From the IMG/VR virus record IMGVR_UViG_3300000271_000006, positions 1 through 64,000 of that record: a stretch of DNA of 64,000 nt. One strand, 5' to 3'. Shown in pieces: positions 1 through 40,001 of this stretch (its first letter is position 1; each line of letters begins with the position of its first letter). Source of the stretch: a virus. The notes beneath the pieces were generated by a model, which had not been told where the DNA came from, made no database searches, and saw only the letters and a program-made list of their open reading frames with translations. Both the position numbers and the translations under genes were made by a program.

Positions 1-480
1 GTGGAGTTCCAGCCCCTTGACCCCCTTGGCAATCAGGAGGTCAACGGCCTTGTTTGTGGCGGCGCCCGCCGTGGCTCCGTGGATTTGGGAGGGACGCGAA
101 GCGGAATGGCTGGCCGGCGCTGCGGCTTGGGCAGGCGGAGGAGTCGTTCCCTTGGATTGGTGGTAGACCTCCACGAACTGGAACTGGCCAGACTTGTTGA
201 CGTGAAGCTCTTGGGTTGTCTTCCCGTTGTACTCGTTCAACTTGGTGAACAAGCCCTGCCCGGCGGCATTCGCGTGAATGACAACGGTCTTCCCCTCCAT
301 CTTGGAAATGTCGGAGTGCTTCCAGACCACCAGCTTGATTTCGCCCGATGGGTCGGCAACAATCGCATTCTGGGGGGCACTAGGGTTGTCCTTCTTGGGA
401 TAGACCTTTTTGAGGGTCACGGAAACCTCGTCAACCGGAGATTCGGGCGGGAGGTTTTTTACATCACTGAGTTTCATCAT
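1..480 (-). CDS. OB-fold-like protein, possible ssDNA-binding protein (partial, runs off window start)
   Basis: Own translation of the minus strand from ATG 480 gives MMKLSDVKNLPPESPVDEVSVTLKKVYPKKDNPSAPQNAIVADPSGEIKLVVWKHSDISKMEGKTVVIHANAAGQGLFTKLNEYNGK..., open to nt 1. It is absent from the ORF track because there is no in-window stop. ATGA overlap with the stop of ORF 477..962. Function is guessed from the beta-rich N-domain plus Pro/Ala linker. Confidence 0.4.
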   Translation of the reverse strand, partial: MMKLSDVKNLPPESPVDEVSVTLKKVYPKKDNPSAPQNAIVADPSGEIKLVVWKHSDISKMEGKTVVIHANAAGQGLFTKLNEYNGKTTQELHVNKSGQFQFVEVYHQSKGTTPPPAQAAAPASHSASRPSQIHGATAGAATNKAVDLLIAKGVKGLELH

Positions 481-962
481 GTTGTTTTTGTTTCAGGTTC
501 AGGACTGAAATACTGGATCATACTCATGCTCCGCAAGCCCAAATGTCCAAGCAACGCCTTCTTTGGCTGTTTTTGTGGTCGGGGGCACGCGCAGGTGTTC
601 GTCCTTGGTCGCGATGCCGTAGCTCCGCCCCATTGGGCCGGTGCCTTGGCCGTTGAGTGCGCCGAACTTTCGGAGCGCCACGAGCGCAGCCCCCTTGCCG
701 CGTCGCCCAGCGGCTTTTCGATTGCACCGAACATGAAGACGATCGCATTGAGCGCCTGGGCCTGTGTCTTCGCCGCAACCCGAGGCGCCATGTCCTCGAG
801 CCAGGCGCGCACCCGTTCCTCGTTGGTCGAGTCGCGGTGGTTGCGCGCAACGAAGTCAATGAAGTCACGGGCGCGGGAGCAATATACAAGCTCCGTGTTG
901 TAGCTGAGGTGGCGGGTGCGGCAGACCGCCTGCATTCGGTTGATGATTTCTGACTTTGTCAT
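477..962 (-). CDS. Tyrosine-recombinase N-terminal SAM-like domain protein (IntI/XerD-type N-domain only, no catalytic domain)
   Basis: ORF track 477..992. ATG at 962 gives MTKSEIINRMQAVCRTRHLSYNTELVYCSRARDFIDFVARNHRDSTNEERVRAWLEDMAPRVAAKTQAQALNAIVFMFGAIEKPLGD, which fits the YS.RTE..Y..W...FI.F...E.V..FL..L...V...T..QAL.AL.F.Y pattern of integron-integrase/Xer N-domains. The remaining ~75 aa are low complexity, and no catalytic R..HxxR..Y region appears in any frame downstream. Confidence 0.5.
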   Translation of the reverse strand: MTKSEIINRMQAVCRTRHLSYNTELVYCSRARDFIDFVARNHRDSTNEERVRAWLEDMAPRVAAKTQAQALNAIVFMFGAIEKPLGDAARGLRSWRSESSAHSTAKAPAQWGGATASRPRTNTCACPRPQKQPKKALLGHLGLRSMSMIQYFSPEPETKTT

Positions 963-988
963 GATATAGGGGAAAATCGGCAGGATAA

Positions 989-1336
989 TCACTGGTTAGC
1001 CTTGGCGTGCGTGAGTCGGATAAAGACGATGCTCCCGGCCCCCTCGCCGATGTCCCACTCGTAGTGCCACGGCTCCCACGCTGCGTGCCACCAGTTGCCC
1101 TTGTCGGCCACATCCGCGACGAAGTCCGCGAGCTGATCATCTGGGGCATCACTGAGTCCGTGTAGCCACTGCGCCTCGGCCCAGAATCGTGCGACCTCGT
1201 CGCCCTTGATTTGCTCCGTCTTGTAGGACTCGCTGTCCGCGACGACAGCCAGGAGATCTAAACCGGCTAACCATGCGTCCACAGCCAACGCCGGGGATTG
1301 TCCGGCCGGCGATTGAGTTTCACTTTTCATCTCCAT
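989..1336 (-). CDS. hypothetical protein (accessory cassette ORF)
   Basis: ORF track, 115 aa. The ATG lies in the loop of structured repeat 1265..1395. The N-terminus MEMKSETQSPAGQSPALAVDAWLAG follows the leader pattern imposed by the repeat. Confidence 0.55.
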   Translation of the reverse strand: MEMKSETQSPAGQSPALAVDAWLAGLDLLAVVADSESYKTEQIKGDEVARFWAEAQWLHGLSDAPDDQLADFVADVADKGNWWHAAWEPWHYEWDIGEGAGSIVFIRLTHAKANQ

Positions 1337-1395
1337 AGAGTGCTGTCTTGAGGTTATTGGTTTTCGCCCGGCGTCGGCTGATACGCGGTGTTCTG
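1265..1395 (-). repeat. attC-like structured inverted repeat (copy 1)
   Basis: Gene-sense reading: CAGAAC-n9-CAGCCGACGCCGGG-[loop with ATG 1336]-CCCGGCGTTGGCTG-n10-GTTAGCC. 14-bp stem including one G.T. Confidence 0.65.
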
Positions 1396-1962
1396 CTGAT
1401 CGAGTTTCGCGAGGATCTGGCGCCCGAGAGCGTGCAGGTCGCTGAAGTATTTTTCGGAGTTGCGCCGCTCGTATTCGCGCTCAAAGACACGGCCGGACCA
1501 CTCTTCCCATCCGCGCGCAGAAATCACTTCGGACATCGCGCGGCAGTCGTCGTCGCTCGCCGGGTCGAACCCGTGTTCGGTGAAGTGGTCCACCTCGGCC
1601 TCGCACCCGTAGTTTGTGAGCGTGTTCGACAGCAGTTTTCCGCAGCCCTCGCAGAACGGCGTAGAGTCGCCCTCGTTACCCCAGCCCCCATCGACCAGCC
1701 ACTCGCCTTCGGGATCGGCCTGCTTGAGCTTCGCGATTTCCTTTTCCGCGCACTCGTAGCAGTAGCTTGTGCTCTCGTCGTGATCGCGATTGCTGCCGCA
1801 TATCCAGTGCTCCGGCGCAGCGGGCACGCGGGCCGCGCCTGCATCGAAGAGTTGCACCAGTCGTGCACGTTCGGCCTCAGACAACGGAGGCAGAACCAAG
1901 TGCCCAGAGCCAACAGGCACCGGCTGTCCGTTTTCGAGATTCATTTCAGTAGAGGAGATCAT
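1354..1962 (-). CDS. Cys-rich hypothetical protein (accessory cassette ORF)
   Basis: ORF track, 202 aa, with CYEC and CEGC pairs. ATGA overlap with 1959..2354. An alternative ATG at 1944 (MNLENG) lies inside the loop of repeat 1891..2004. Confidence 0.6.
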   Translation of the reverse strand: MISSTEMNLENGQPVPVGSGHLVLPPLSEAERARLVQLFDAGAARVPAAPEHWICGSNRDHDESTSYCYECAEKEIAKLKQADPEGEWLVDGGWGNEGDSTPFCEGCGKLLSNTLTNYGCEAEVDHFTEHGFDPASDDDCRAMSEVISARGWEEWSGRVFEREYERRNSEKYFSDLHALGRQILAKLDQQNTAYQPTPGENQ

Positions 1963-2004
1963 TGGATTTTCTGCGGTGCCTGCGGCTCATGCACGGCGTT
2001 CGGG
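1891..2004 (-). repeat. attC-like structured inverted repeat (copy 2)
   Basis: CCGAAC-n9-GAGCCGCAGGCACCG-[loop with ATG 1962/1944]-CGGTGCCTGTTGGCTC-n9-GGTTCTG. 5+9 bp stem. Confidence 0.7.
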
Positions 2005-2354
2005 CAAGAGGGCTCGACCATCTCGCAGGCGACCGCGAGGAGCACGACGGGCGAGTGGCCGTCATCGCTCATCTCCTTTGCCACGGGCAGCACGGTTTTG
2101 AGCACGTTATCAGAGCCCTCGTCTTCCATCAGCGCCTCGATTGCCGGGCGGATTTCACAGACCTTATCAGGCCATTTGTCGCCAAGCAGGCGCTTCACGC
2201 CGTCGCGCGTTTCAATGAGTTTCTCGGAGACACGGAGTGCCCGAACCAGTCCGCCAAAGCCAATTCCGGCCCGCGTGCCCGCGTCCGGCTGCTGCGTGTC
2301 ATGTCCCATATCAGTGTCCTTTCGTTTGGTTGTGATGGGCCGGAATCGGCTCAT
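1959..2354 (-). CDS. hypothetical protein (accessory cassette ORF)
   Basis: ORF track, 131 aa. The ATG at 2354 is part of the conserved GATGAGCC of repeat 2240..2368. An alternative ATG at 2309 (MGHDTQQ) lies in the repeat loop and may be the true start. Confidence 0.5.
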   Translation of the reverse strand: MSRFRPITTKRKDTDMGHDTQQPDAGTRAGIGFGGLVRALRVSEKLIETRDGVKRLLGDKWPDKVCEIRPAIEALMEDEGSDNVLKTVLPVAKEMSDDGHSPVVLLAVACEMVEPSCPNAVHEPQAPQKIQ

Positions 2355-2368
2355 CGGAATTGTTAGGC
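2240..2368 (-). repeat. attC-like structured inverted repeat (copy 3)
   Basis: GCCTAAC (its TAA is the stop of 2363..2692)-AATTCCGAT-GAGCCGATTCCGGCCC-[loop]-GGGCCGGAATTGGCTT-n9-GGTTCGGG. ~15 bp stem. Confidence 0.7.
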
Positions 2369-2692
2369 GCCGGACTCGCGGTTTGGGTCGTCGAGTCTTT
2401 TACGCAGCTCCAAAAGGGCGAAGCGGAGTTGGTTAGCCATGTATTCAGCCGCCGGGTTTTCTCCGTGCATCACCTCTACATCGCGGCTCATCTGCTCAAA
2501 GCGCAGCCACGTTTCTTCGAGGCGCTTGCGATAGCTCTCGGCGATCTTCTCCCAGTCCACAAATGCAGGCGGAACCGGGATGCGAGTCACCATCCCGCAG
2601 TGATAGCAGTCCATGTTTACGATCTGCATGGAGACCTTGGGCACGGTCGGAATAGCCGAGAGTGGATTATCGAATTTGTCGTAGTGTTGCAT
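2363..2692 (-). CDS. hypothetical protein (accessory cassette ORF)
   Basis: ORF track, 109 aa. Its TAA stop lies inside the GCCTAAC box of repeat 2240..2368. Confidence 0.6.
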   Translation of the reverse strand: MQHYDKFDNPLSAIPTVPKVSMQIVNMDCYHCGMVTRIPVPPAFVDWEKIAESYRKRLEETWLRFEQMSRDVEVMHGENPAAEYMANQLRFALLELRKRLDDPNRESGA

Positions 2693-2705
2693 CGTTAAAA
2701 TCGGA

Positions 2706-2773
2706 GCCTAACCAGCGATTACACACAACCTCCGGAGCTTCGCTCCTCCGGTGTGTGACCCGCGGTGTTAGCC
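2706..2773 (-). repeat. attC-like structured inverted repeat (copy 4, short loop)
   Basis: GGCTAAC (its TAA is the stop of 2768..2974)-n9-CACACACCGGAGGAGC-gaa-GCTCCGGAGGTTGTGTG-n9-GTTAGGC. Confidence 0.7.
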
Positions 2774-2974
2774 AAGACCGCGCTTTCGCATCTCTTGGCG
2801 AATCATATATTCGCGGGCTTTCGCTTCACTACCAGAGCATCCCCGCGCAAAGCGTAGAGCGTTTCTCAGGTGCTTCTCCGTGTGCTGCGAATACATATCG
2901 GGCTCGTCCCGAATGGACCGGGCTGCGTCTCGGTCGCGCCAGTCGGCACGTTTATCGTATCGGAATGCGGGCAT
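2768..2974 (-). CDS. hypothetical protein
   Basis: ORF track, 68 aa. The ATG is 7 nt after the GTTAGCC box of repeat 2982..3069, and the TAA stop lies inside the GGCTAAC box of repeat 2706..2773. Confidence 0.5.
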   Translation of the reverse strand: MPAFRYDKRADWRDRDAARSIRDEPDMYSQHTEKHLRNALRFARGCSGSEAKAREYMIRQEMRKRGLG

Positions 2975-2981
2975 AAAAAGA

Positions 2982-3069
2982 GGCTAACAAGTAGATGGAG
3001 CCAAGCCGGATACCTGTCACGGCGAGCGAGAACCGCCGTCCTCCGGCTGGTTCATTATGGTGTTTCGCC
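2982..3069 (-). repeat. attC-like structured inverted repeat (copy 5)
   Basis: GGCGAAAC..-GAACCAGCCGGA-[loop]-TCCGGCTTGGCTC-CATCTACTT-GTTAGCC. One mismatch plus one bulge. It ends 7 nt before ATG 2974. Confidence 0.55.
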
Positions 3070-5005: not shown

Positions 5006-5011
5006 GGAAGG

Positions 5012-5801: not shown

Positions 5802-5810
5802 TAGGGGAGA

Positions 5811-6074: not shown

Positions 6075-6079
6075 GGGCG

Positions 6080-7583: not shown

Positions 7584-7675
7584 GTGGGGAGTTTGGGGCT
7601 TGGTGTGGTGGTTGGCTTACTTAATCAGATGGCTGATGTATTCGATGAGGTAGGGGGTTGGCGCGAAAGGTCTTC

Positions 7676-14051: not shown

Positions 14052-14061
14052 ACAAAAGAAA

Positions 14062-14163
14062 GATAACAAATTACTAGAGCGAACCCGGTTGACTGTTGCA
14101 GTTTGCGCTAGGCACGGCCACGGGCGCTCGATTCTGGCCGGGTTCGCTCAGTATGGTGTTCGG
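14062..14163 (-). repeat. attC-like structured inverted repeat (copy 7)
   Basis: CCGAAC-n8-GAGCGAACCCGG-[49-nt loop with the stop of 14108..14464]-CCGGGTTCGCTC-TAGTAATTT-GTTATC. Perfect 12-bp stem. Confidence 0.7.
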
Positions 14164-14492: not shown

Positions 14493-14583
14493 GCCTAACC
14501 AGGCGAGACACCCAATTCGCATAGCTCACCGGTCCGGCGAGCTAGCATCAGGGGCTGCGAATTGGGTGCTCTTGTTGTTAGGC
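14493..14583 (-). repeat. attC-like structured inverted repeat (copy 8, canonical core boxes)
   Basis: GCCTAAC-AACAAGA-GCACCCAATTCGC-[34 nt]-GCGAATTGGGTG-TCTCGCCTG-GTTAGGC. 12-bp perfect stem. The boxes fit RYYYAAC / GTTRRRY exactly. Confidence 0.8.
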
Positions 14584-14946: not shown

Positions 14947-15002
14947 GCCTAACCAGCGCATGGAGCCAATTCGCTTCGCTCATGGCTCATGGCATTGTTC
15001 GC
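14947..15002 (-). repeat. attC-like structured inverted repeat (copy 9, short)
   Basis: GCGAAC-AATGCCAT-GAGCCA-[14 nt]-TGGCTC-CATGCGCTG-GTTAGGC. Near-identical twin at 37211..37265. Confidence 0.6.
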
Positions 15003-15188
15003 TTGTGTATGACGCTCAATCTTAGCGCGCGCAGACTCAAGATTGCGGATGGCCTCGTCAATCCAAGCCATGGATTCGTTCCATTGCCCATCTTTCCATT
15101 CCTCTTCGGCCATAAACACATCGGCTCGGGCTCCTCCGAGATTTAGGTAGGCGGATTCTATACATGGAATAGGTTCGTTCATCGGCAA
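14949..15188 (-). CDS. hypothetical protein (first early-left ORF)
   Basis: ORF track, 79 aa. The C-terminus is encoded by repeat 14947..15002. Confidence 0.55.
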   Translation of the reverse strand: MPMNEPIPCIESAYLNLGGARADVFMAEEEWKDGQWNESMAWIDEAIRNLESARAKIERHTQANNAMSHERSELAPCAG

Positions 15189-19454: not shown

Positions 19455-21365
19455 ATGGAGATCAAGGAAGCAGCCAAGATACGGGACTACATCGTCAAGG
19501 GCGAATGGGTGATGGCGGCAAACTTCACCCTAAGCCTCATGGGGAAGGACCCCATCGTTGAAACTAAGGATGATGCCTTGGTGGTTCTGCGCGGCCTGCT
19601 TCAGCACCTCCTTGACAGCGAACTTTATCTCCACGCCGGAACGCTTCTTTGGGGTCCGGAAATGTTTTGCGCGGAACCCAAGTTTGTTCAAGACGTCTTC
19701 CGCATCCTTCACTCCGAGGCAAAGATACTCATTCAGGGGGCCGCGTCAACGGGCAAGTCGTATAATGCAGGTGTTTGGATGTACCTTGATTGGAGGCGCG
19801 ACCCAGAATACACGTCAATCAAGTGCATTGGTACGTCAGAGGATCAGGTGCGAAAGCATGTATTTGCCCACTTGGTAAAGCTCCACAGGGCAGCATGTAT
19901 CCCCATGGAGGAGGAGGTCATTATCCGCGACTCGGATATGTGGCTCGGGGTCAAGGGGGCTGGATTCGAGTTTGGCATTACGTCAATCGCCTACAAGCAG
20001 TCACAGGAAACGTCGGGCGCGGTTAAGGGATACAAGTCCATGCCGGTCCGCACCCATCCCCACCCAAAGTTTGGGCTTTTTAGCCGCCTTCGCCTACTTG
20101 CTGACGAGGCTCAAAATATTCCCGGCGGCCCATTCCAAGACCTTAACTCATGGGTCAGTCAAATTGATGGAACTGAATTTGTTAAGATCGCGCTCGCGTA
20201 CAACCCCGAGGACGTAACGCGCACGGTTGTAACAATGGCCGAACCTGAACAGGGCTGGGGCATTGAAGACTTGGATAAGCTCTACGAGTGGAAGTCCAAA
20301 GCCGGTTGGAATGTGCTTAGGCTTGATGCCGCAAAGTCAGAAAACGTCATAGCCAAGCGCAAGATTTACCACGGCATTCAGTCCTATGAAGGCTTCATGG
20401 GATATATCCTTGCCGGCGGAGATACTTCGGCTTCGTATATGTGCTTTGGTCGAGGATTTCCGCCAACCAAGGGCGTCAGCAACACAATCATCCCCATGAG
20501 CTGGCCACAAGAAGCGCGTGGCGAAGCAATCTTCATCGGCGTCCCAGAGAACGTAGCCGCCGTTGACTTGGCATTCATGGGCATGGATAGCGCCCAAATG
20601 GCCGTTGGGCGATGGGGTCTCGCGTCCGGCTACCGCGTAGAAGCACCCAATACCCTAGAGGGATATAAGGTGGTGAACTTTACAAGCCGTCTCAATATCT
20701 CCAAAAAAGAACCCCGTCACGTCTTGCAGCTTGACCAAGTGATACCAATGGAAAAGCATGACGACACGGTAATGATGGCCGAAGAGATCATGGGCCGGTG
20801 CAACATGCTTGGCATCAAGCCAGAATGGGTTGGTGTGGATTGCACGGGAATCGGTCTCGGAACCCACTCTCACCTCAACAAAGTTTGGGGCGATGTTATG
20901 GGCATAGCTTGGAATACGATGGCGTCGGAAAAGAAGATTCTAGCCGAAGACAAGCAGAATGCCCGCGAGACGTGCGACGGAGTAATGAGCGAAATGTGGT
21001 ACGCGTTTCGGCGCTGGCTTGACCCGCGAGTCAAAGCGGTTCTAATAAACCCCATCATCCCGCAAACCCCGCTCAATAGCCAGCTAACCACCCGCCGCTA
21101 TAGCACCGGTAAAAACGGGATCAAGGTTGAGTCAAAGGAGCAATACAAGGCCCGCAACCAGCGATCGCCAGACGAGGCGGATTGCGCAATCATGCTTTGC
21201 CATGTGGTGCGGATGCGGGCGGAAGTAACCCCTGGGCTTGTCGAGGAAACCAAGCCCAGCCACAATACCGTACAAAGAGATGAAGGAACTGGCTTTACTC
21301 CCGTAACCAAGCGGGAATCAGTTGACGCAGAGGACTCAATCTGCAAGGATGGGGTTGATGGCTAA
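19455..21365 (+). CDS. terL: terminase large subunit
   Basis: ORF track, 636 aa. Walker A-like LIQGAASTGKSYNAG, Walker B-like LRLLADEAQNIP, and a C-terminal nuclease-like VDCTGIGLG. AAGGAG is 6 nt upstream of the ATG. Confidence 0.85.
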   Translation: MEIKEAAKIRDYIVKGEWVMAANFTLSLMGKDPIVETKDDALVVLRGLLQHLLDSELYLHAGTLLWGPEMFCAEPKFVQDVFRILHSEAKILIQGAASTGKSYNAGVWMYLDWRRDPEYTSIKCIGTSEDQVRKHVFAHLVKLHRAACIPMEEEVIIRDSDMWLGVKGAGFEFGITSIAYKQSQETSGAVKGYKSMPVRTHPHPKFGLFSRLRLLADEAQNIPGGPFQDLNSWVSQIDGTEFVKIALAYNPEDVTRTVVTMAEPEQGWGIEDLDKLYEWKSKAGWNVLRLDAAKSENVIAKRKIYHGIQSYEGFMGYILAGGDTSASYMCFGRGFPPTKGVSNTIIPMSWPQEARGEAIFIGVPENVAAVDLAFMGMDSAQMAVGRWGLASGYRVEAPNTLEGYKVVNFTSRLNISKKEPRHVLQLDQVIPMEKHDDTVMMAEEIMGRCNMLGIKPEWVGVDCTGIGLGTHSHLNKVWGDVMGIAWNTMASEKKILAEDKQNARETCDGVMSEMWYAFRRWLDPRVKAVLINPIIPQTPLNSQLTTRRYSTGKNGIKVESKEQYKARNQRSPDEADCAIMLCHVVRMRAEVTPGLVEETKPSHNTVQRDEGTGFTPVTKRESVDAEDSICKDGVDG

Positions 21366-21473
21366 CTCCTGAGATGAGCCACGAGCCCGCAGAAAACTCT
21401 ATGGAAACGACAACTCAAAAACCACCCGAAAACGTACCGGCTGCGAGCGTTGGCTCTGGACGGCTGGTTCGGC
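21361..21473 (+). repeat. attC-like structured inverted repeat (copy 10)
   Basis: GCTAAC (its TAA is the terminase stop)-TCCTGAGAT-GAGCCACGAGCCCGCAG-[loop with ATG 21401]-CTGCGAGCGTTGGCTC-n10-GTTCGGC. Confidence 0.65.
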
Positions 21474-21742
21474 TCCGTCTTTTTTTGGCGCACGGGACGG
21501 CCGGTGCGCTCGGCTTCATGCCCCACCAAAGGACAGGCGTGAAGGACACAGCGAAAAACCTGATATGGCTCCCCAAGCAGGCGGTGAACATAGTGCGTCA
21601 ATCCCCGGCCAAGGCGTGGACATGGCGGGAAACAGATTTGGAGATATGTTCAATCTTCGCTCGCAGGAAGGGGCTGCTGCCCTACGCCTTGCCGAACGGT
21701 CGGGATGAGCCGCGAGCACAGCGCGAAAACAAAAACACATGA
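21401..21742 (+). CDS. hypothetical protein (accessory ORF)
   Basis: ORF track 21374..21742. The in-frame ATG 21401 (METTTQKPPENVPAASVGSGRLV...) lies in the loop of repeat 21361..21473, as in the paralogous leaders. The sequence is of low plausibility. Confidence 0.4.
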   Translation: METTTQKPPENVPAASVGSGRLVRLRLFLAHGTAGALGFMPHQRTGVKDTAKNLIWLPKQAVNIVRQSPAKAWTWRETDLEICSIFARRKGLLPYALPNGRDEPRAQRENKNT

Positions 21743-21809
21743 GCACTCACGCAAATGAATCGAGCACCAAGGGGCCGCTGTGCTCGTTGGCTCTGGCACA
21801 TGGTTCGGC
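21691..21809 (+). repeat. attC-like structured inverted repeat (copy 11)
   Basis: GCCGAAC-GGTCGGGAT-GAGCCGCGAGCACAGCG-[loop with ATG 21739]-CGCTGTGCTCGTTGGCTC-TGGCACATG-GTTCGGC. 5+11 bp stem, and the outer boxes are perfectly complementary. Confidence 0.8.
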
Positions 21810-22035
21810 AATCGTGCGCCGCGCTACATTCTGGAGCGATACCGGACTGGCTATCGCCGCTCGCCAATGCTTCGGAAGCAATGCGGATGTAGGAGGGTGG
21901 AATAGCCCAATCGACATCTGGGACGAAAAGGCCGCAGACCTCGTGGCTTTCTGTGAACTGGTCGATGAATGGCCGGTTACGATGAGCTTGCCGAACAACA
22001 TGATATGCGAATCTCATGAGAATTTGAATGGCTAA
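21739..22035 (+). CDS. hypothetical protein (accessory ORF)
   Basis: ORF track, 98 aa. The ATG lies in the loop of repeat 21691..21809. Confidence 0.45.
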   Translation: MSTHANESSTKGPLCSLALAHGSAIVRRATFWSDTGLAIAARQCFGSNADVGGWNSPIDIWDEKAADLVAFCELVDEWPVTMSLPNNMICESHENLNG

Positions 22036-22936: not shown

Positions 22937-25855
22937 ATGAGTGACGCATCAGCCATCAATCAAATGCTTCTTTCCCGCATGGAAGAGTTCTGTGCGTATA
23001 TCCTGCCAAACGGCAAGCGAATGGGCAACAAATGGGTGGTTGGAAGCTCCGATGGAGAGCAGGGTAAATCCTTCCAAGTTACCATGGCCGGAAGCAAGGC
23101 CGGTATGTTCAAGGACTTTGCCGGCGAAGACAAGGGCGGTACTCCGCTTTGGCTGTTGTCTCAGGTCAAGAAAATTCCCTTCGCCCAAGCCGTCAAAGAA
23201 GCGGCAGACTGGCTTGGGATCAAGGCCGACGACTACGGGGTTAAGCGCCACAAACCCAAGTCCTACGCCAAGCCCGATAAAGCCCCCATCCGCCAATCCG
23301 AGCCCAACACAAAGGTCATGGACTACCTCACAATCGAAAGGAAGATTGACCCGAGGGTGATCGCGGAATCCAAGATCGCCGAGACCGAGAACGGCGAAAC
23401 CATCGTCTTCAACTACGCAGACTACGACGACGAAACCCAGCGCTGGCTTGTCGCCCACCGCAAATACCTAGATGTGGACCGCCCCGAAGGGAAAAAGAAG
23501 ATGTGGGCCACCAAGGACACCAAGCCATGCCTCTACGGCAAGCAAATGGTGGGGGATGACGTAAGGGAACTGCTGGTTAGTGAGGGCGAAATCGACCAGC
23601 TTTCATGGCTCTCTTGGTCCATCCCTGCCGTCAGTGTGCCAATGGGGGCTAAGAACCTCCAATGGATCGACATTGACTGGGATTGGCTTTCCCGATTTGA
23701 GAAGATTTACATTGCCCTAGACCAAGACGAAGTAGGGATTCAGGCCGCTCAGGACGTATGCAAGCGCCTCGGAATCCACCGATGCTACATCGTCACGATG
23801 CCCAAGAAGGACGCCAATGAATGCTTGCAACAGGGGTTTACGCGGGAGCAAATGCTTCAAGTGCTCAAGGAGTCCAAGGCCATCGAGCTTGACGAGATTA
23901 AGCGCCCCAGCGACTTCCGCCAAGAGGTTCACGACCTCTACGACGTGGACCCTAGTAAGATGGGGCTTGAGACGCCATGGTATCCCGAACTTCCGTGGCG
24001 TTTGCGCAAGGCCGAGTTTACCATCCTTACTGGATTTTCGGGCGGGGGGAAAGCGCTCGATGTCTCAACCCCCATCCCGACGCCTACCGGTTGGACTACC
24101 ATGGGGGATATAAGGGTCGGAGACAGGGTGTTTGATGAAAACGGAAAACCGTGCAACGTAGTGCTTGTTACCGATTTTCAGTATGACCGAAAATGCTTTA
24201 GCGTTAACTTTTCGGACGGCAGCGCAATCATTGCGGACGAAGACCATCTGTGGGAAACGTGGACACCCCACGCCCGCAATTCCCATGCCCGTGCTATGCG
24301 ACGGGGTCCACTAAAGCCAAAGGGAACAGACCAAAGCCATAAACGCATCCAACCGCAGGTTGTAACAACCAAAGAGATTTCCGAAACCATTTACGAAACG
24401 AAATGGAAGTCCGGAAAGCACTTGCGCCATGCAGTTCCGGTAACAAAGCCGATAGAAATGCCCGCCGTCGCGCTCCCCATTGACCCCTACTGCTTGGGGT
24501 ATTGGCTTGGAAACGGAACGGCAAGAGTCGGGGATGTGACCTTTGGCAACGGAGACGAGGAGGTTTTGGAAAACTACCGCGCAGCGGGTTACGAGATTGG
24601 GCACAACAAGGCCAGTGAGGATCGGGCACCAACCCACCGCATAATTGGGCTTCGTGAGCAGCTGTCTTCGCTCAATCTCATTGAGAATAAGCACGTCCCC
24701 AAAATCTATCTTCGGGCGTCTGCCGCCCAACGACTTGCGCTACTCCAGGGGCTCATGGACTCAGATGGCTACGGGGCTCAAGACGGGTCTTGCGAATTTT
24801 GCTCAACTACGCTTGAACTGGCTGAAGCATGCCAAGAGCTACTTCTCTCGTTTGGCATTCGTGCCGGGATTAACGAGGGCCGCGCCATGCTCTACGGCAA
24901 GGATTGTGGGCCAAAATACCGGGTTCTTTTCACGCCGTCGATTCCGGTGTTTCGCCTGAAACGAAAACTGGACAGATTGAAGATGGACAGCTTCCCGGCA
25001 TATCGAAACTATCGCTATATAACCTCTGTGGAGCCGGTGGCCTCTCGCCCAGTTAAGTGCATTCAGGTGGATTCACCAAGGCATCTATACCTTTGCGGCA
25101 AGGCAATGATTCCAACCCACAACACAATAAGCCTTAATCAGTTAATGGTTTATGCAATGTCCAATGGCATGAAGGTTCTGGATGCGAGTTTGGAGGTAAG
25201 GCCCGGCATGACTCTTTACAACATGACCCGAACGGCCTTGGCAAAGCGGGTTAGCACAAAGGAAGAGCGCAACGCCTGCATCAACTGGCTGGAGGAGGGG
25301 ATGCTGTTCCTTGACTGCGTGGGTACGGTGAATGTAGACCGGCTTATGCAAGCAATGGAGTACGCCCGCAAGCGCCACGGCGTTGACGTGTTCGTTATCG
25401 ACTCCTTGTTTAAGTGCGGACTTTCAGGGGAAGACTACGCGGGTGCTCGCGCCTTCGTGGACCGCCTTACGACATTCTGCAACAATACCGGCGCCCACGT
25501 CATCCTAGTCGCCCATAGCCGCAAGACAGCAAACGGCAATGAGCTTTCGCCGCCGTCCAAGTCTGACGTGGCCGGTTCATCGGACATCACCAACGCGGCC
25601 TTCAACGTACTTGTCGTATGGCGCAACAAGCTCAAAAAGCGAAAGATGGACGAGGCGAAGCAGGCCGGCAACCTTGAAGAGTACGCCAAATGGGAGTCTG
25701 AACCGGACGGCAAGATCATACTGGACAAACAGCGGTTCGGCGAAGGCGAAGAGTGCGAGATTCCGATATGGTTTAACCGCGATGCGATGCAATTTCATAC
25801 TGTTCAGGGTAGAAGCTACCCCTATTTCGTCATGGAAGGGGCAGATCAGGCCTAA
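22937..25855 (+). CDS. bifunctional DNA primase-helicase (Toprim + DnaB/gp4-like), interrupted by an intein in the P-loop
   Basis: ORF track, 972 aa. Toprim-like LVSEGEIDQLSWL...IALDQDEVG. Walker A GFSGGGK|[intein]|T. The helicase C-domain contains VFVIDSL and ILVAHSRK. Confidence 0.9.
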   Translation: MSDASAINQMLLSRMEEFCAYILPNGKRMGNKWVVGSSDGEQGKSFQVTMAGSKAGMFKDFAGEDKGGTPLWLLSQVKKIPFAQAVKEAADWLGIKADDYGVKRHKPKSYAKPDKAPIRQSEPNTKVMDYLTIERKIDPRVIAESKIAETENGETIVFNYADYDDETQRWLVAHRKYLDVDRPEGKKKMWATKDTKPCLYGKQMVGDDVRELLVSEGEIDQLSWLSWSIPAVSVPMGAKNLQWIDIDWDWLSRFEKIYIALDQDEVGIQAAQDVCKRLGIHRCYIVTMPKKDANECLQQGFTREQMLQVLKESKAIELDEIKRPSDFRQEVHDLYDVDPSKMGLETPWYPELPWRLRKAEFTILTGFSGGGKALDVSTPIPTPTGWTTMGDIRVGDRVFDENGKPCNVVLVTDFQYDRKCFSVNFSDGSAIIADEDHLWETWTPHARNSHARAMRRGPLKPKGTDQSHKRIQPQVVTTKEISETIYETKWKSGKHLRHAVPVTKPIEMPAVALPIDPYCLGYWLGNGTARVGDVTFGNGDEEVLENYRAAGYEIGHNKASEDRAPTHRIIGLREQLSSLNLIENKHVPKIYLRASAAQRLALLQGLMDSDGYGAQDGSCEFCSTTLELAEACQELLLSFGIRAGINEGRAMLYGKDCGPKYRVLFTPSIPVFRLKRKLDRLKMDSFPAYRNYRYITSVEPVASRPVKCIQVDSPRHLYLCGKAMIPTHNTISLNQLMVYAMSNGMKVLDASLEVRPGMTLYNMTRTALAKRVSTKEERNACINWLEEGMLFLDCVGTVNVDRLMQAMEYARKRHGVDVFVIDSLFKCGLSGEDYAGARAFVDRLTTFCNNTGAHVILVAHSRKTANGNELSPPSKSDVAGSSDITNAAFNVLVVWRNKLKKRKMDEAKQAGNLEEYAKWESEPDGKIILDKQRFGEGEECEIPIWFNRDAMQFHTVQGRSYPYFVMEGADQA
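24053..25123 (+). mobile_element. intein (357 aa) with LAGLIDADG homing-endonuclease domain, class-3-like (Ala1, W-C-T)
   Basis: It starts ALDVSTPIPTPTGWTTMGDIRVGDRVF directly after GGGK. Block B reads IIADEDHLWETW. LAGLIDADG motifs are LGYWLGNGT and LQGLMDSDGY. Block F reads VKCIQVDSPRHLYL. It ends IPTHN followed by Thr, and excision restores GFSGGGKT. Confidence 0.85.
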
Positions 25856-32243: not shown

Positions 32244-32284
32244 GGCGAACATCCGGGATTAGGGACGCGCCGGTACTGCCTCCC

Positions 32285-32394
32285 CCGAACTCCTGAGATG
32301 AGCCACACGGCGCGAAAACTTTATGGAAACTCAAACTAAAAAAACCACCGGAGAAGGACAGACCGCCGTGTTGCGCTCTGGCGATTTGTTCGGC
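32285..32394 (+). repeat. attC-like structured inverted repeat (copy 12)
   Basis: CCGAAC-TCCTGAGAT-GAGCCACACGGCG-[loop with ATG 32323]-CGCCGTGTTGCGCTC-TGGCGATTT-GTTCGGC. 13 bp with two bulges, and the outer boxes are complementary. Confidence 0.75.
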
Positions 32395-35925: not shown

Positions 35926-36719
35926 TCCTAATTTTTACAATCTGCCGCAATGGGATGCCGTTCATCAAGCATCACATTGAGGAGTTCAAGAAGCTGGACG
36001 AACCTTGGGAGTGGTACATTGCGGAGGGCGCATCCAACAACAAGCGGGATACGGCGTGGTGCGCGACTCCCGAGCCAGGCCTTTCGGGCGATGGCACGAC
36101 GGAGTACCTGCAAAAGCTATCGGTCGCCAACGACAACGTTTTCGTCTACCGCAACCGTCTTTGGCCATGCAAGACCTCAATGGTCAATACGCTTACCTCG
36201 GCCATGCACAACGACGGGGTGCTCATTCAGGTTGACGTGGATGAGTTCTGGACGGCGGAGCAACTTGCTAAAATCTCGTTCCTGTTTCGCGCCAACCCAA
36301 CCTACACCGCAGCAAGGTTTGACTGCCGGTACTACGTAGGCAAAAACCTGGCCAGCGTTAAACGCGGAACATACGGCAATAATCCGGGAGAATGGGTCAG
36401 GGCTTGGCGGTTCAAGGTGGGCGATACCTTCAAGTCCCATGAGCCCCCCGTCATGCACGGCCCGCAACCCCGCATCATTGACAACGAGACAACGCGGAAG
36501 TGCGGGCTTGTCTTTGACCACCTAAGCTGGGTGTTCCCCGATCAGGTCAAGAAGAAGGAGAAGTTTTACAAGTACGAGGGAGCCTATGCTGGCTGGGAAA
36601 GGCTGCAATCCAATGACAAATTCCCCGCCCCCCTAAATCGGTTCTTGCCTTGGGTGGATAAGGGGGCTGTTGTGGACCGAATCAACCCGCCAGAACGAAT
36701 CCAACGAATCTTTCAATAG
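35922..36719 (+). CDS. putative GT-A glycosyltransferase (family 2-like)
   Basis: ORF track 35901..36719. ATG 35922 makes an ATGA overlap. Contains MILIFTICRNGMPFI..., DGTTEYL and VDVDEFW. Confidence 0.55.
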   Translation: MILIFTICRNGMPFIKHHIEEFKKLDEPWEWYIAEGASNNKRDTAWCATPEPGLSGDGTTEYLQKLSVANDNVFVYRNRLWPCKTSMVNTLTSAMHNDGVLIQVDVDEFWTAEQLAKISFLFRANPTYTAARFDCRYYVGKNLASVKRGTYGNNPGEWVRAWRFKVGDTFKSHEPPVMHGPQPRIIDNETTRKCGLVFDHLSWVFPDQVKKKEKFYKYEGAYAGWERLQSNDKFPAPLNRFLPWVDKGAVVDRINPPERIQRIFQ

Positions 36720-36720: not shown

Positions 36721-36870
36721 ATGAATACTACGAATCGACTCGGGCCACACGCACCCGAAACACAGAAGGTGCTCGACGCCGGGCTGCACGAGCGAGCGGC
36801 TGATCTGCCGCCTGAGTTGGCACAATGGCGCGATGCTGCTCCCGACAGCCCGTTTCCGCCGAACTCCTAA
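36721..36870 (+). CDS. 49-aa ORF (accessory array D, d1)
   Basis: ORF track 36670..36870. ATG 36721 comes directly after the upstream stop. Its TAA stop lies in the spacer of repeat 36859..36957. Confidence 0.35.
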   Translation: MNTTNRLGPHAPETQKVLDAGLHERAADLPPELAQWRDAAPDSPFPPNS

Positions 36871-36957
36871 GATGTGCAAGATGCACCAACTCTATCACTC
36901 TATAAAAAACACTAAAAACGTCCGCTGGTGCATCTTGGCACTGGCGATTTGTTCGGC
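36859..36957 (+). repeat. attC-like structured inverted repeat (copy 13)
   Basis: CCGAAC-TCCTAAGAT-GTGCAAGATGCACCA-[37-nt loop, no ATG]-TGGTGCATCTTGGCAC-TGGCGATTT-GTTCGGC. 15 bp with one bulge. Confidence 0.75.
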
Positions 36958-37138
36958 CTTCTGCGCGTCCGGCTGTATGGATTCACGCACGCTAGCCAAA
37001 GATGCGCCAGAAGTTCTGCAAACCATCGAACTGCAAGGCTGTGAATACTTCTTCACGGAGTTCAGTGCCCGCCAATCCAACAACTATGCGGTGGCGATCA
37101 ACGCCTCGGCCGAGGCGGAGGGGGAAGTGTTTGGGTGA
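36872..37138 (+). CDS. putative secreted protein or lipoprotein (d2)
   Basis: ORF track 36833..37138. MCKMHQLYHSIKNTKNVRWCILALAICSAFCASGCMD has a signal peptide with an imperfect lipobox (ASGC). The signal peptide is encoded by the 3' arm of repeat 36859..36957. Confidence 0.5.
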   Translation: MCKMHQLYHSIKNTKNVRWCILALAICSAFCASGCMDSRTLAKDAPEVLQTIELQGCEYFFTEFSARQSNNYAVAINASAEAEGEVFG

Positions 37139-37210
37139 ACCATGCGGAAGAGGCGTCTCTCATGGTCCAGAATTTCTGTCAGCCAACCGAAAATCAAAAA
37201 TCCAATACAA

Positions 37211-37265
37211 TGAACAATGCCATGAGCCATGAGCGAAGCGAATTGGCTCCATGAGCTGGTTGGAC
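37211..37265 (+). repeat. attC-like structured inverted repeat (copy 14, short)
   Basis: GAACAATGCCAT-GAGCCA-[14 nt]-TGGCTC-CATGAGCTG-GTTGGAC. An alternative upstream 5' arm CAGCCAAC-CGAAAA lies at 37180. Confidence 0.55.
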
Positions 37266-37594
37266 TCCGTAATAACTTTTTAAATACAATGAAAGCATCC
37301 GATTACAAAATGACCGTGAATCAGCGCATCGAGGTCGAGCATCTGACCGAAAGGGCGCAGGACGATCTAGAGTCCACGCTAGCTCGCCTGGTGTGCCAGC
37401 GCGACCTAGCAATAGAGGGCGCAACCAAGCAAAAGGCCGAATCCGACGATCAGGCCCAATGGGCCAAGGATGCCAGCGCACGAATGAACCGCATGGAAGA
37501 CGCCATCCGCGCGGTGCTGGCGGTCAATATACCGCTGCCGTCTGGACTCGGGGCGCAACTCTGCAACGCCATCGAATACAACGAAAAACCATGA
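37229..37594 (+). CDS. hypothetical protein (d3)
   Basis: ORF track, 121 aa. An alternative in-frame ATG at 37289 (MKASDYK) lies 23 nt after the GTTGGAC box. Confidence 0.5.
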   Translation: MSEANWLHELVGLRNNFLNTMKASDYKMTVNQRIEVEHLTERAQDDLESTLARLVCQRDLAIEGATKQKAESDDQAQWAKDASARMNRMEDAIRAVLAVNIPLPSGLGAQLCNAIEYNEKP

Positions 37595-37986
37595 ACCGAG
37601 AAATCTTTAATCTCTTCGCAGACAACAAACCGCTTCCGAAAAATGCCATGCTCCGAGGCGAACCGATTTCGCGCATCGCACTTGAAAGCGCGAACAAAGT
37701 CCCGAACCACATGAGCGAACACGTTCCGTTCTGGGTGCTCGGTTGGCGTGACCTGCATGATGACCTTACGATCCGCTCAGAAGCTGTCTGCTACGGCGGG
37801 CCGTGGGACGGTCGCGAAGTCATCGACGCGGGCGAATACAAGGCCGAGAAACTCGACCGCCAAACGGGGCTGATCCACGTCTATGAGCGCAGCGCACGCG
37901 GCTTTGACTACCGGGGCACGCAGCTTTTCGGCTCTCTGTCCAACAATAAGCTGACCGGCGCGGGCAGCAGCCCGCGTTCGGTCTAA
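37591..37986 (+). CDS. hypothetical protein (d4)
   Basis: ORF track 37393..37986. ATG 37591 makes an ATGA overlap (MNREIFNLFADNKPLPKN...). Confidence 0.55.
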   Translation: MNREIFNLFADNKPLPKNAMLRGEPISRIALESANKVPNHMSEHVPFWVLGWRDLHDDLTIRSEAVCYGGPWDGREVIDAGEYKAEKLDRQTGLIHVYERSARGFDYRGTQLFGSLSNNKLTGAGSSPRSV

Positions 37987-38006
37987 CGCCTTGTTCGCCA
38001 ATTTTT

Positions 38007-38333
38007 ATGAACACCGAAGGACCTCGAAAATTCACTATTCCGCGGCGCTCCGTAACCGAATGCGGAGCCTGCAAGTATCACGTCTGTCATAGCTCTTTCC
38101 ACACCCGTAGCGGATCGGGCGGGTGGCGCGATTATGCCTGCTCGCATCCCGACGCATTCAAAGACGAATCGCTTGTCGGCGTGGCACCGGAAGAAAACGC
38201 GGCGCTCGTGGCGCACATCGCCGCGATTGAGAAGCAGAGCTACGGGGGCCGGCTGATTGGTCGCACCGAAGCGACGCCCAACTGGTGCCCATATTTGGCG
38301 AACACCAAGGTGAGCCACACGGCCGGGAAATAA
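38007..38333 (+). CDS. Cys-rich hypothetical protein (d5)
   Basis: ORF track, 108 aa. Its stop lies in the loop of repeat 38297..38418. Confidence 0.5.
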   Translation: MNTEGPRKFTIPRRSVTECGACKYHVCHSSFHTRSGSGGWRDYACSHPDAFKDESLVGVAPEENAALVAHIAAIEKQSYGGRLIGRTEATPNWCPYLANTKVSHTAGK

Positions 38334-38418
38334 CTCTATGAGCAATACAACCGAACAGAAAACCCCTGATGCGAGTAGCGCGGCCAATGGCCGTGTTGGC
38401 TCTAGCGATTTGTTAGCC
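38297..38418 (+). repeat. attC-like structured inverted repeat (copy 15)
   Basis: GGCGAAC-n8-GAGCCACACGGCC-[loop with the stop of d5 and ATG 38338]-GGCCGTGTTGGCTC-TAGCGATTT-GTTAGCC. 13 bp with one bulge. Confidence 0.75.
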
Positions 38419-38553
38419 GCTTTGGGCGGAAGCATGTGTGTAAGCGGCGAAGTGCTGACCGGGCAGCGCGCACTCGACTACATCGAAACAATGCACCCGG
38501 TGGACCGCGGATCACTCGTGGAAGACCTGCGCAGCCTCGAAATGCTCAAATAA
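38338..38553 (+). CDS. hypothetical protein (d6)
   Basis: ORF track, 71 aa. The ATG lies in the loop of repeat 38297..38418. Confidence 0.5.
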   Translation: MSNTTEQKTPDASSAANGRVGSSDLLAALGGSMCVSGEVLTGQRALDYIETMHPVDRGSLVEDLRSLEMLK

Positions 38554-38554
38554 T

Positions 38555-38755
38555 ATGGACTTCTCTGGAATGCCCGGACCGGGCGCTTTCTTCTTCGTCG
38601 CGGCCCTCGTGTGCTCGCTTCTCGCAACTCTCGTCGGCGTGGCCCTAAAGCTCGGCGGCGTGCTCTTGCTCTCGTGGTGGTGGGTGCTTTCGCCGCTGCC
38701 TATTCTGCTCGTGCTGGCGGTAATCGTGGCCGGCCTCGGAGCTTTGTTCGGCTAA
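38555..38755 (+). CDS. two-TM membrane protein (d7)
   Basis: ORF track, 66 aa, strongly hydrophobic. It ends in ...GALFG, encoded by a degenerate GTTCGGC box. Confidence 0.5.
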   Translation: MDFSGMPGPGAFFFVAALVCSLLATLVGVALKLGGVLLLSWWWVLSPLPILLVLAVIVAGLGALFG

Positions 38756-38779
38756 CGACCAAGGTCAGACACGCTCGCC

Positions 38780-39088
38780 ATGAAGAATAATAAAATCCCC
38801 GCGCGTAGAACCAGCTCCCGAAAACGGACGGCTGGCGAGCGTTGTTCTGTAGCGACTGGTTCTCATGCCGTGCGCAAACGGCGGGACTCCTTCGACATCG
38901 GCCAAGCCGCGAGGATCAAGGGACTCAAGCGGATCGATAACCCCTACGAAGGCTTTTCGTATTCGTGGTATGGGTGGGACGCCGGATGGTCTGTCGAAGA
39001 CCAGAATCTCGGGCATGAGAACGCTGAGGTCTCGCACAGAGACCGGGAGCGCCAGCCCGATGCCGATCAACCACCCAAGCAACCCTAA
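38780..39088 (+). CDS. ribosome-modulation-factor (Rmf)-like domain protein (d8)
   Basis: ORF track, 102 aa. FDIGQAARIKGLKRIDNPYEGFSYSWYGWDAGWS fits the G..A...G......NPY.....W..GW pattern of Rmf-like proteins. Confidence 0.45.
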   Translation: MKNNKIPARRTSSRKRTAGERCSVATGSHAVRKRRDSFDIGQAARIKGLKRIDNPYEGFSYSWYGWDAGWSVEDQNLGHENAEVSHRDRERQPDADQPPKQP

Positions 39089-39136
39089 AACTCAACTACA
39101 AGGCGGGTCTCTGTTGCGAGCACCGTTTTGTTCTGC
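39017..39136 (+). repeat. attC-like structured inverted repeat (copy 16)
   Basis: GAGAAC-n8-CTCGCACAGAGACC-[loop with the stop of d8]-GGTCTCTGTTGCGAG-CACCGTTTT-GTTCTGC. 14 bp with one bulge. The arm sequence co-varies relative to other copies. Confidence 0.7.
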
Positions 39137-39168
39137 CTCTTGAAAATCTCCGACAACACCAAGAAACC

Positions 39169-39444
39169 ATGAAAATAAAACAGATTATCGACCGCACGAA
39201 AACCGAATATGAATATTCCGATCCCCACGGATCAGCAACCACAACGCTCGCCGCGCTGAACCTGCTCGCGGAAATCGAGAGGTGGCTATCTGAGGGTGCC
39301 ACGCTAAAGGCCACGAATGCCGATGGATTCGGATTCGAGATATTGGAAGATGGTTCCGTGCGATCTGAAATGACGATCACCGGGGCTAAGGCAGGCGTCA
39401 TCTTGTACCGGCAGAACGTTCCCGATGAGCCACGCGGAAAATGA
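39169..39444 (+). CDS. hypothetical protein (d9)
   Basis: ORF track, 91 aa. It starts 32 nt after repeat 39017..39136. Confidence 0.5.
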   Translation: MKIKQIIDRTKTEYEYSDPHGSATTTLAALNLLAEIERWLSEGATLKATNADGFGFEILEDGSVRSEMTITGAKAGVILYRQNVPDEPRGK

Positions 39445-39500
39445 AGCCTGAACAACACAAGCAGCCGTCGCCCGCGTTGCGCTCTGGCGGGTGGTTGGGG
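39412..39500 (+). repeat. attC-like structured inverted repeat (copy 17)
   Basis: CAGAAC-GTTCCCGAT-GAGCCACGCGG-[loop with ATG 39441]-CCGCGTTGCGCTC-TGGCGGGTG-GTTGGGG. Confidence 0.65.
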
Positions 39501-39641
39501 GCGCCCTCGGCAATCGTCTGCGTGAAGATCGAAGACGACGGCCTTCCTCCGTGCCCTCTCTGCGGAGGACCACTAAAAGACGACTGGCACGGCGTCGCCG
39601 CATGCTTCTGCAACTTCGGCGGGCAACCGCCACGAATTTAA
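39441..39641 (+). CDS. small zinc-ribbon-like protein (d10)
   Basis: ORF track, 66 aa, with CPLC...C.C. The ATG lies in the loop of repeat 39412..39500. Confidence 0.45.
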   Translation: MKPEQHKQPSPALRSGGWLGAPSAIVCVKIEDDGLPPCPLCGGPLKDDWHGVAACFCNFGGQPPRI

Positions 39642-39644
39642 GCC

Positions 39645-39751
39645 CCCAACAGTCGGGATGAGCTAACGGCGCCCCCGACCCCCGACCACAAATGAACTCT
39701 TGCGAAAACCAAGTGAGCCCCGTCGCCGTTAGCTCTGGCCCGTGGTTCGGA
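39645..39751 (+). repeat. attC-like structured inverted repeat (copy 18)
   Basis: CCCAAC-AGTCGGGAT-GAGCTAACGGCG-[loop with ATG 39692]-CGCCGTTAGCTC-TGGCCCGTG-GTTCGGA. Perfect 12-bp stem with a compensatory C>T / G>A change relative to the consensus. Confidence 0.8.
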
Positions 39752-39973
39752 AGTTCAGGACGTGAGAAGCACTGCAAGACCATCGATGCCATCCCGGCGT
39801 GGAAACGCTTCCTGCTTTGCTGGCTATCGTATCGCAAATGGAAGCTGGCTCGCGCCTGCGACCACGCAGCAATCCACGCGCTGAAACGTCTCGACGACTA
39901 CGCGCTATTCGACCGCCTGCTGCGCGTGTCTGACGCCCAATGGGCTGAAATTTTCAATCTTCCGAACAAGTGA
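39692..39973 (+). CDS. hypothetical protein (d11)
   Basis: ORF track, 93 aa. The ATG lies in the loop of repeat 39645..39751. Confidence 0.45.
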   Translation: MNSCENQVSPVAVSSGPWFGSSGREKHCKTIDAIPAWKRFLLCWLSYRKWKLARACDHAAIHALKRLDDYALFDRLLRVSDAQWAEIFNLPNK

Positions 39974-40001
39974 TTCTGGAAAGGCGTCTTCGTATATCAG
40001 C

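Follow-up and report, generated by a model that had tools for sequence, protein, structure and literature searches.

The window analysed in this study is a 64,000-nucleotide (nt) stretch of viral DNA (positions 1 to 64,000 of IMG/VR virus record IMGVR_UViG_3300000271_000006). It represents a phage-type genome encoding, among others, a primase/helicase with an intein, collagen-like tail-fibre proteins and an Ig-domain protein. Up to about 16 kb, its genes are encoded by the minus strand, and beyond that point by the plus strand. The identical sequence also occurred in a 69.9-kb JGI contig and in Logan assemblies of SRR845265. Our subject is a family of structured repeats resembling attC, the recombination sites of integrons. 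Except for one isolated copy, they are grouped in four arrays (A to D, Table 1), where they alternate with small accessory open reading frames (ORFs).

Array D, located between a glycosyltransferase gene and the gene starting at 40002, contained 8 elements (D1 to D8) within 2.9 kb and ended with a lone terminal 5' box (39961-39967). The six copies proposed by a previous sequence-only reading of this locus were all there, their positions being off by 1-2 nt at most. Two more had been suspected near 37938..37999 and 38746; both were present, and they could be delimited as complete rather than degenerate elements (37938-37999 and 38750-38865). The 11 small ORFs of the array were confirmed, all on the sense strand. 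Their supposed richness in GC was not, since array D amounted to 57.3% against 54.5% on its left and 57.5% on its right. Ten of these ORFs had no Pfam match (the 49-aa ORF 36721-36870 was outside the scan). Likewise, no Pfam family was recorded among the 20 cassette ORFs scanned in the window, and a BLAST comparison of all 24 cassette ORFs detected no mutual similarity.

Elements and ORFs of array D were closely intertwined. D1 was parsed as GCCGAAC / TCCTAA / GAT / GTGCAA ... TGGCAC / T / GGC / GATTT / GTTCGGC, and its 5' arm contains the start codon (36872) of the next, lipoprotein-like ORF. The variable loop of D4 holds both the stop of the upstream ORF (38333) and the start of the downstream one (38338). 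In D5, the TAA stop of ORF 38555-38755 is provided by the 5' box GGCTAAC, and the loop holds the start of ORF 38780. D6 displayed the co-varying arms CTCGCA/TGCGAG, a perfect 3-bp lower helix and an extrahelical C.

Table 1. Location of attC-like elements, integrase remnant and cargo ORFs in the window (E values of attC elements were obtained with covariance model R3)
Feature	Position (nt)	Strand	Remarks
Integron-integrase remnant	477..959	-	PF13495 E = 1e-14; TIGR02249 E = 1e-10
Candidate attI junction, GGCTAAC then CAGTGATTATCC	983..1001	-	Between last array A cassette and remnant
Array A, five attC	2982-3068, 2706-2773, 2240-2368, 1890-2004, 1265-1396	- (sense)	Span 1265..3068; one ORF after each attC
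Array B, four attC	14947-15003, 14493-14583, 14061-14164, 13613-13740	- (sense)	
Array C, two attC and two cassettes	21360-21473, 21691-21809	+	Span 21360..21809
Single attC outside arrays	32284..32394	+	E = 5.2e-9
attC D1	36858..36957	+	E = 5e-10
attC D2	37209..37265	+	E = 4e-4; short loop
attC D3	37938..37999	+	E = 2.8e-9; full canonical layout, 4-nt loop
attC D4	38297..38418	+	E = 2.7e-15
attC D5	38750..38865	+	E = 7e-11
attC D6	39016..39136	+	E = 1e-6
attC D7	39411..39500	+	E = 2.2e-8; loop holds start of ORF 39441
attC D8	39644..39751	+	E = 2.3e-8; loop holds start of ORF 39692
Lone terminal 5' box, TCCGAAC then AAGTGATT	39961..39975	+	Right end of array D
Cargo ORFs 1-4 of array D	36721-36870, 36872-37138, 37289-37594, 37591-37986	+	
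Cargo ORFs 5-8 of array D	38007-38333, 38338-38553, 38555-38755, 38780-39088	+	
Cargo ORFs 9-11 of array D	39169-39444, 39441-39641, 39692-39973	+	

The family extended well beyond array D. A full-length covariance model (R3), trained solely on elements from other contigs, recovered 20 full-length elements at five loci of the window, with E values from 1.8e-17 to 4e-4. All of them were on the local gene-sense strand, and the next best match only reached E = 0.07. A custom structure scanner gave 22 strand-hits at a score of at least 13, against a mean of 1.1 and a maximum of 3 in 30 dinucleotide shuffles. This scanner and R3 superseded a model of the phage copies with trimmed loops (R1), which penalised long loops and therefore found short-loop copies only. 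Some copies were clearly related to one another. D2 is a near-twin of the minus-strand copy 14947-15003, the similarity stopping at the AAC and GTT boxes. The loop of the isolated copy at 32284 is homologous to that of copy 21360, including an embedded ATGGAAAC start (ATG), which points to a shared leader-peptide region in some attC sites.

From the outside inwards, each copy displayed 7-nt boxes of the type RYYYAAC/GTTRRRY, a spacer, a 3-bp helix, an extrahelical base, a 6-bp stem, an extrahelical T and a variable loop, for a total length of 57-132 nt. The AAC/GTT triplets were invariant in 20 out of 20 window copies, as well as in all 25 copies parsed by hand (19 from the window and 6 from relatives). 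With numbering started at the outer end of the 3' box, position 16 was unpaired in every one of these 25 copies (T in 19 and C in 6). An extrahelical T occupied position 23 in 19 of them, separated from position 16 by the 6-bp stem. The spacers of 8-9 nt formerly described turned out to be composite: an unpaired spacer of 5-6 nt is followed by a 3-nt helix, to which the 3' arm adds one extrahelical base. Once re-parsed, the apparent excess over attC spacers vanished. Unpaired spacers measured 5-6 nt in the 5' arm (7 in one copy) and 5-6 nt in the 3' arm, and the same parse held for attC(aadA1), attC(dfrA1) and 37 bacterial sites. The published bottom strand of attC carries R boxes RYYYAAC/GTTRRRY, unpaired spacers of 5-6 nt and, on the arm opposite the AAC triplet, an extrahelical base 16 and a T 23/24 that are six bp apart (PMC5027507). 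The geometry of the phage copies matches this description.

Many dispersed copies with inverted-repeat ends might also be expected from miniature selfish repeats, i.e. miniature inverted-repeat transposable elements (MITEs) or repetitive extragenic palindromes (REPs), spread by a transposase or a REP-associated tyrosine transposase. Yet no transposase or HUH-type gene was encountered among the 85 ORFs scanned, single copies were devoid of target-site duplications, and the copies were always gene-directed and placed at gene junctions. Their structure, moreover, fits attC rather than REP elements, and such an origin appears extremely improbable. Three further candidates were discarded: intrinsic terminators (no T-run), CRISPR-like or tandem repeats (ORFs between units and co-varying arms) and repeats resulting from protein-level conservation (the same nucleotides are translated in three frames).

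The covariation of the arms noted in the sequence-only reading proved to be real. In an alignment of 20 copies, 86.2% of the cells were paired, as against 33-40% when partners were slid. Both-sided (compensatory) changes affected 18 out of 23 pairs, and none of 500 shuffles reached the observed values; a separate hand parse provided the same picture. Across copies, the 3' box was translated in all three reading frames and, on the sense strand, 25 G.T pairs were counted for 8 A.C pairs. Both observations indicate selection on the nucleic acid, and more precisely on its sense strand.

Models derived from the phage copies also recognized true attC sites. R1 matched the bottom strand of attC(aadA1) with 28.8 bits (E = 2.3e-5, 19 standard pairs out of 19), against 7.7 bits for the top strand, and R3 matched the same bottom strand with 38.3 bits (E = 3.4e-8). 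The attC(aadA1) query sequence was found exact in 1962 plasmids and its parse was identical to that of the phage copies. R3 further matched attC sites next to IntI in four bacterial (Verrucomicrobiota) chromosomal integrons. In the reverse direction, a mini-model (R2) combined attC(aadA1) with 21 attC located beside intI in bacterial genome contigs. Its best window match was D3 (37936-38000, 19.2 bits, E = 0.012) and its second one a copy of array A (2705-2775), in what is a weak test, long loops being unscorable. As controls, the structure scanner recovered both attC of a class 1 integron, with the best parse on the intI1 strand, opposite the cassette genes. It also recovered Verrucomicrobiota arrays that lie upstream of intI, on the intI sense strand, and comprise up to 16 sites.

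Hairpins acting purely at the RNA level (RNase III-type processing, stabilisation or translation control) would account for copies that all follow the direction of transcription, stand at gene junctions and are enriched in G.U-compatible pairs on the transcribed sense strand. Their likeness to attC would then be coincidental. Such a coincidence would have to produce the boxes, the spacer, both extrahelical positions and cross-matches to attC with E values around 1e-8. It would also leave unexplained an integrase remnant beside array A and an IntI gene beside the array of another contig, L017 (see below). We regard a purely RNA-level origin as very unlikely.

The search for an IntI-type recombinase yielded an N-terminal remnant in the window but no intact integrase. 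This remnant, recognised by reading ORF translations, is a 161-aa ORF in which the first ~80 residues form a Phage_int_SAM_4 domain and the remainder is unrelated (65-aa tail). Its top NCBIfam match was 'integron integrase' (TIGR02249), and a tblastn search of the window with IntI1 returned nothing significant. The remnant is directly downstream of array A, past the array end, and shares its strand with the attC bottom strands, which is the geometry of class 1 integrons. With an N-terminal integrase domain only, though next to a candidate attI, the window does not contain a complete integron.

The closest relative of the remnant (60% identity) was found in L017, a phage-like contig with a DnaC-like gene and a small terminase. 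Allowing for one frameshift, L017 encodes a near-complete IntI whose catalytic domain (C-terminal half) is 50% identical to that of IntI1 and retains the IntI-specific insert ERKYP...WFWVFP...DPRSG...RRHH. Five elements of the same family are located upstream of this gene, on the same strand. Two contigs of IMG/VR encoded an IntI 74-75% identical to the L017 C-terminal fragment. Among the bacterial genomes scanned, this fragment mostly matched Verrucomicrobiota integrases (45-56% identity), which may be taken as a weak hint to the host.

Two further integrase genes deserve mention. In contig L020 (IMGVR_UViG_3300044612_003464, positions 5224-6141), the N-terminal domain of IntI is swapped for a cytosine-methyltransferase-like DLFCGVGGW stretch. 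A window-type attC overlaps the start of this intI gene, and it looks like a cassette was inserted into the gene. In Virus Rctr41k (GenBank KX853513), a gene annotated as 'xerD integrase-like' (4680-5678) encodes an integron integrase of full length that shares 46% identity with IntI1 over 317 aa. Downstream of it, on the same strand as the genes, there are repeats of ~130 nt resembling attC.

A candidate attI was delineated as well. In both the window and L017, GGCYAAC is followed by a conserved CA(G/T)T(G/A)ATTATCC just ahead of the integrase start. The L017 junction (5560-5585) reads GGCCAAC then CATTAATTATCC. The end of array D (39961-39975, CCGAAC then AAGTGATT) and its counterpart in the related contig L011 (3413-3430) resemble this candidate junction.

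Presence/absence polymorphism at the level of single units, expected from cassettes, was observed in relatives of the window. L011, whose flanking gene showed 70% amino-acid identity, follows the window collinearly as far as the glycosyltransferase stop (36713-36719) and does so again from the terminal box onwards (L011 3415 = window 39962). The 49-aa ORF and eight cassettes present in the window between these points have as their counterpart in L011 a YunG-like gene and a single cassette. Arrays C and D were absent from the more distant relatives L012 and L015, in which the accessory block was missing altogether. With respect to L012, array C is an insertion at the junction/overlap of two conserved genes, at a box-like site ATGGC(C/T)AA|G, the empty site reading GATGGCCAAG. 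An 8-bp direct repeat, ATGGCTAA, lies on either side of it (21358-21366 and 22028-22035), and the downstream conserved gene begins with the second copy. Array C could have entered by insertion at the box-like site or through microhomology. Elsewhere in L011, a 660-nt insertion (1313-1971, a 228-aa ORF) between two glycosyltransferase genes was devoid of attC, so accessory-gene turnover is not all attC-linked.

Cargo was also shared between contigs. The N-terminal 61-aa domain of ORF 37591-37986 was 87% identical in contig L229, where it lies between two attC sites, and 44% identical in L230, L231 and L232, where it forms a clean single-ORF cassette. The last three contigs, from JGI metagenomes, carry phage-like genes, and each has at least 9-10 high-scoring, very regular attC (2491-6371 in L230). 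Among the matches listed, IMG/VR contigs with the same site family comprised L144 (five), L161 (six), L169 and L137. A DNA pattern scan of viral contigs had mostly given chance single matches, and the real arrays were singled out by rescanning with the structure scanner. The relatives of the glycosyltransferase in IMG/VR reached 33-45% only and none of them carried the elements, an IMG/VR search with the gene at 40002 returned nothing, and megablast found no match in GenBank phages to 24 kb of the window. This lineage of phages seems to have a pool of cassettes of its own.

These comparisons also bear on the idea that the sites, although derived from attC, are no longer moved by an integrase. 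They would then persist as structured modules that shuffle genes by homologous recombination and supply expression signals, the latter because one gene stops and the following one starts within a single hairpin. The truncated integrase of the window and the damaged ones of its relatives speak for it, as do the 12 ORFs out of 20 that start in the hairpin and a loop subfamily sharing a conserved ATG region. Integrase action alone, furthermore, does not predict the 8-bp repeat of array C, and the ORF module common to the window and L229 has no attC at its 5' boundary. Yet homologous recombination requires identity, while the arms co-vary. On its right, array D stops precisely at a box, and features of use to IntI only (extrahelical bases, triplets and spacings) have persisted in 20 copies that have diverged, as well as in several unrelated phage contigs. 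Such a loss of integrase mobility is, in our opinion, unlikely.

A comparable arrangement has reportedly been found in T4-type phages, the promoter-early stem-loop (PeSL) cassettes of Arbiol et al. 2010 (Genome Biol Evol). These also consist of repeated structured elements flanking small accessory ORFs in hyperplastic phage regions, and combine modular gene shuffling with expression signals. They differ by their promoter and terminator-like stem-loop and by recombination based on homology, and are not known to possess AAC/GTT boxes, the extrahelical-base geometry or any link to an integrase.

An unusual feature, overlooked in the sequence-only reading, is the inversion of the genes with respect to canonical cassettes. 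Twelve of the 20 downstream ORFs begin inside the hairpin and the remaining eight 8-33 nt past it, while the stop codon of several upstream ORFs is the TAA of a G(G/C)CTAAC box. The longer ORF was antisense to the bottom strand in 26 out of 28 bacterial cassettes but on the bottom strand in 18 out of 20 in viral arrays; the class 1 and Verrucomicrobiota control arrays displayed the canonical layout. Codon usage was examined too. Sense ORFs of arrays A and B scored 0.08-0.40, like control genes, and array D ORFs scored in frame ranged from ~0 to 0.24, positive values being obtained for most of the 11 ORFs of this array; antisense ORFs were negative but for one. Three ORFs of array D and one of array C had been entered out of frame in this run, with negative scores. 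Pipeline gene calls concurred with the sense-strand ORFs. L230, L231 and L232 provide the cleanest example of the inverted layout: one small same-strand ORF follows each attC, and for many of these ORFs the stop codon is the TAA within the following GCCTAAC box. No description of this layout was found in the literature searched.

Clusters of attC sites lacking an integrase are known as CALINs, as defined by IntegronFinder (PMC4889954). With its 8 sites in 2.9 kb and a nearest integrase-like gene that is truncated and 36 kb off, array D corresponds to such a cluster. Very probably, it is the CALIN of a phage-borne, partly decayed integron system. The attC-like architecture initially proposed for these elements is thus sustained from four sides: the re-parsed anatomy, cross-recognition with true attC, the integrase remnant and unit-level polymorphism.

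Several observations weigh against this interpretation. The outer four box positions fit the consensus loosely and are paired in just 45-70% of the copies, and the middle pair of the 3-bp helix is formed in only about one third of them. Position 16 is T or C, whereas it is usually G in clinical attC; in the Verrucomicrobiota integrons sampled, it was mostly C. A canonical cassette consists of a promoterless top-strand ORF followed by attC, whereas attC comes first here and the ORF is on the bottom strand. Several ORFs extend beyond the presumed crossover point into the following attC, so that their C-termini would change on excision. No catalytic domain was detected in the window (PF00589, 85 ORFs) or in 3 kb of sequence past its left end, and all three IntI genes checked in the phage clade were damaged or rearranged (truncated in the window, frameshifted in L017, with a replaced N-terminus in L020). 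Finally, no recombination product, be it a circular cassette or a within-sample population variant, was observed.

By analogy with integron biology, we infer that an IntI acts on these sites, and likewise which integrase this might be. The mobile unit, i.e. the gene cassette, would be one attC plus the following ORF or ORFs. The attC strand with its extrahelical bases opposite the AAC triplet would fold into a hairpin, and IntI would bind both boxes and the flipped-out bases. It would then cut the 5' box between A and C and exchange strands with another attC, attI or a look-alike secondary site, so that cassettes would be gained, lost or reordered as whole units. Here, the recombinogenic (bottom) strand is the coding strand, with ORFs often starting in the loop and ending at, or close to, the following 5' box. 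Because only a truncated integrase is encoded locally, the arrays may either be frozen or be moved in trans by an IntI, which for present-day movement would have to come from the host or a co-infecting relative. The hairpins may also affect expression, having been co-opted as expression modules.

Compared with integron attC sites and CALINs (PMC4889954, PMC5027507), the phage elements share the boxes, the 5-6 nt spacer and bases 16 and 23 around a 6-bp stem. They also share a variable terminal structure and a conservation of structure rather than sequence. The arrays resemble them by their single orientation, by one or two small ORFs of unknown function per unit and, as in integrons, by an integrase gene on the bottom-strand side, past the array end. 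They depart from them by bottom-strand ORFs, attC preceding the ORF and starts often located in the loop, by a T or C at position 16 and often imperfect outer box pairing. The small size of the cassettes (230-730 nt) and the spread over five loci of a ~70-kb genome with a truncated local integrase are further differences. Sedentary chromosomal integrons of Verrucomicrobiota (L067, L087, L093 and L107) exhibited the same attC parse and were matched by the phage-derived model, but their arrays are made of homogeneous attC sequences, unlike the heterogeneous phage copies.

Cassette-like arrays are not new to phages, as attC clusters and integrons in phage genomes have already been published (PMC9892861). 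Phage genomes with attC sites and no integrase were reported there, and some of these sites recombined with IntI1 (Qi et al. 2023, PMC9892861). Two sites of the CALIN of Tetrasphaera phage TJE1 were among those assayed with IntI1 (PMC9892861). In TJE1, our scanner found one attC (1016-1075), after a methyltransferase gene and with its bottom strand antisense, which is the canonical bacterial layout, unlike the inverted one of the window. The published phage clusters have at least 2 predicted sites each, whereas the window has 20, all inverted, together with the remnant of a phage-associated IntI clade. What is new is the scale (20 sites at five loci, the virion-gene region included), the inverted cassette layout with embedded start codons and the association with a phage IntI clade.

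An even broader picture would be that of an environmental phage lineage with its own orientation-inverted integron system, a phage-associated IntI clade serving it, a cassette pool apart from that of bacterial integrons and traded among phages, and attC sites doubling as mRNA expression modules. Many cassettes of this system would have their start codon in the hairpin loop and their stop codon in the following box. Taken as a whole, this proposal is tentative, and we lean slightly against it.

Integrons are regarded as bacterial gene-capture devices, with phages at most occasional carriers of a stray cassette. Here, a single phage genome displays 20 attC at five loci, in early and late regions, plus an integrase remnant. 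The same site family occurred in relatives and in contigs without detected similarity beyond the elements, all of them with flipped genes. If the sites are active, accessory-gene turnover in these phages would partly proceed by integron-type site-specific recombination, and anti-defence or host takeover would be candidate functions of the small ORFs. With its inverted layout, the window further offers a natural experiment on attC strand choice in relation to transcription and gene expression, and on the origin of cassettes.

A few further features of the window were recorded. A tRNA scan detected no tRNA gene in the window and Rfam families gave zero matches at gathering thresholds. The primase/helicase gene (22937-25855, plus strand) is split by the intein, which contains a LAGLIDADG homing-endonuclease domain; in L012, an intein is carried instead by the homologue of the upstream 636-aa gene. 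Gene starts, for instance at 37289, 38007, 39169 and 40002, are preceded by A-rich leaders without Shine-Dalgarno motifs, a trait that is window-wide and consistent with a host not using Shine-Dalgarno initiation. A motif, AACTCTATG, recurs within attC loops. Positions 3500-7600, in the early region, hold a long series of small minus-strand ORFs with zero attC sites. Recorded along with this stretch were a dATP/dGTP diphosphohydrolase N-terminal domain on one window ORF and several ORFs encoding methyltransferases.

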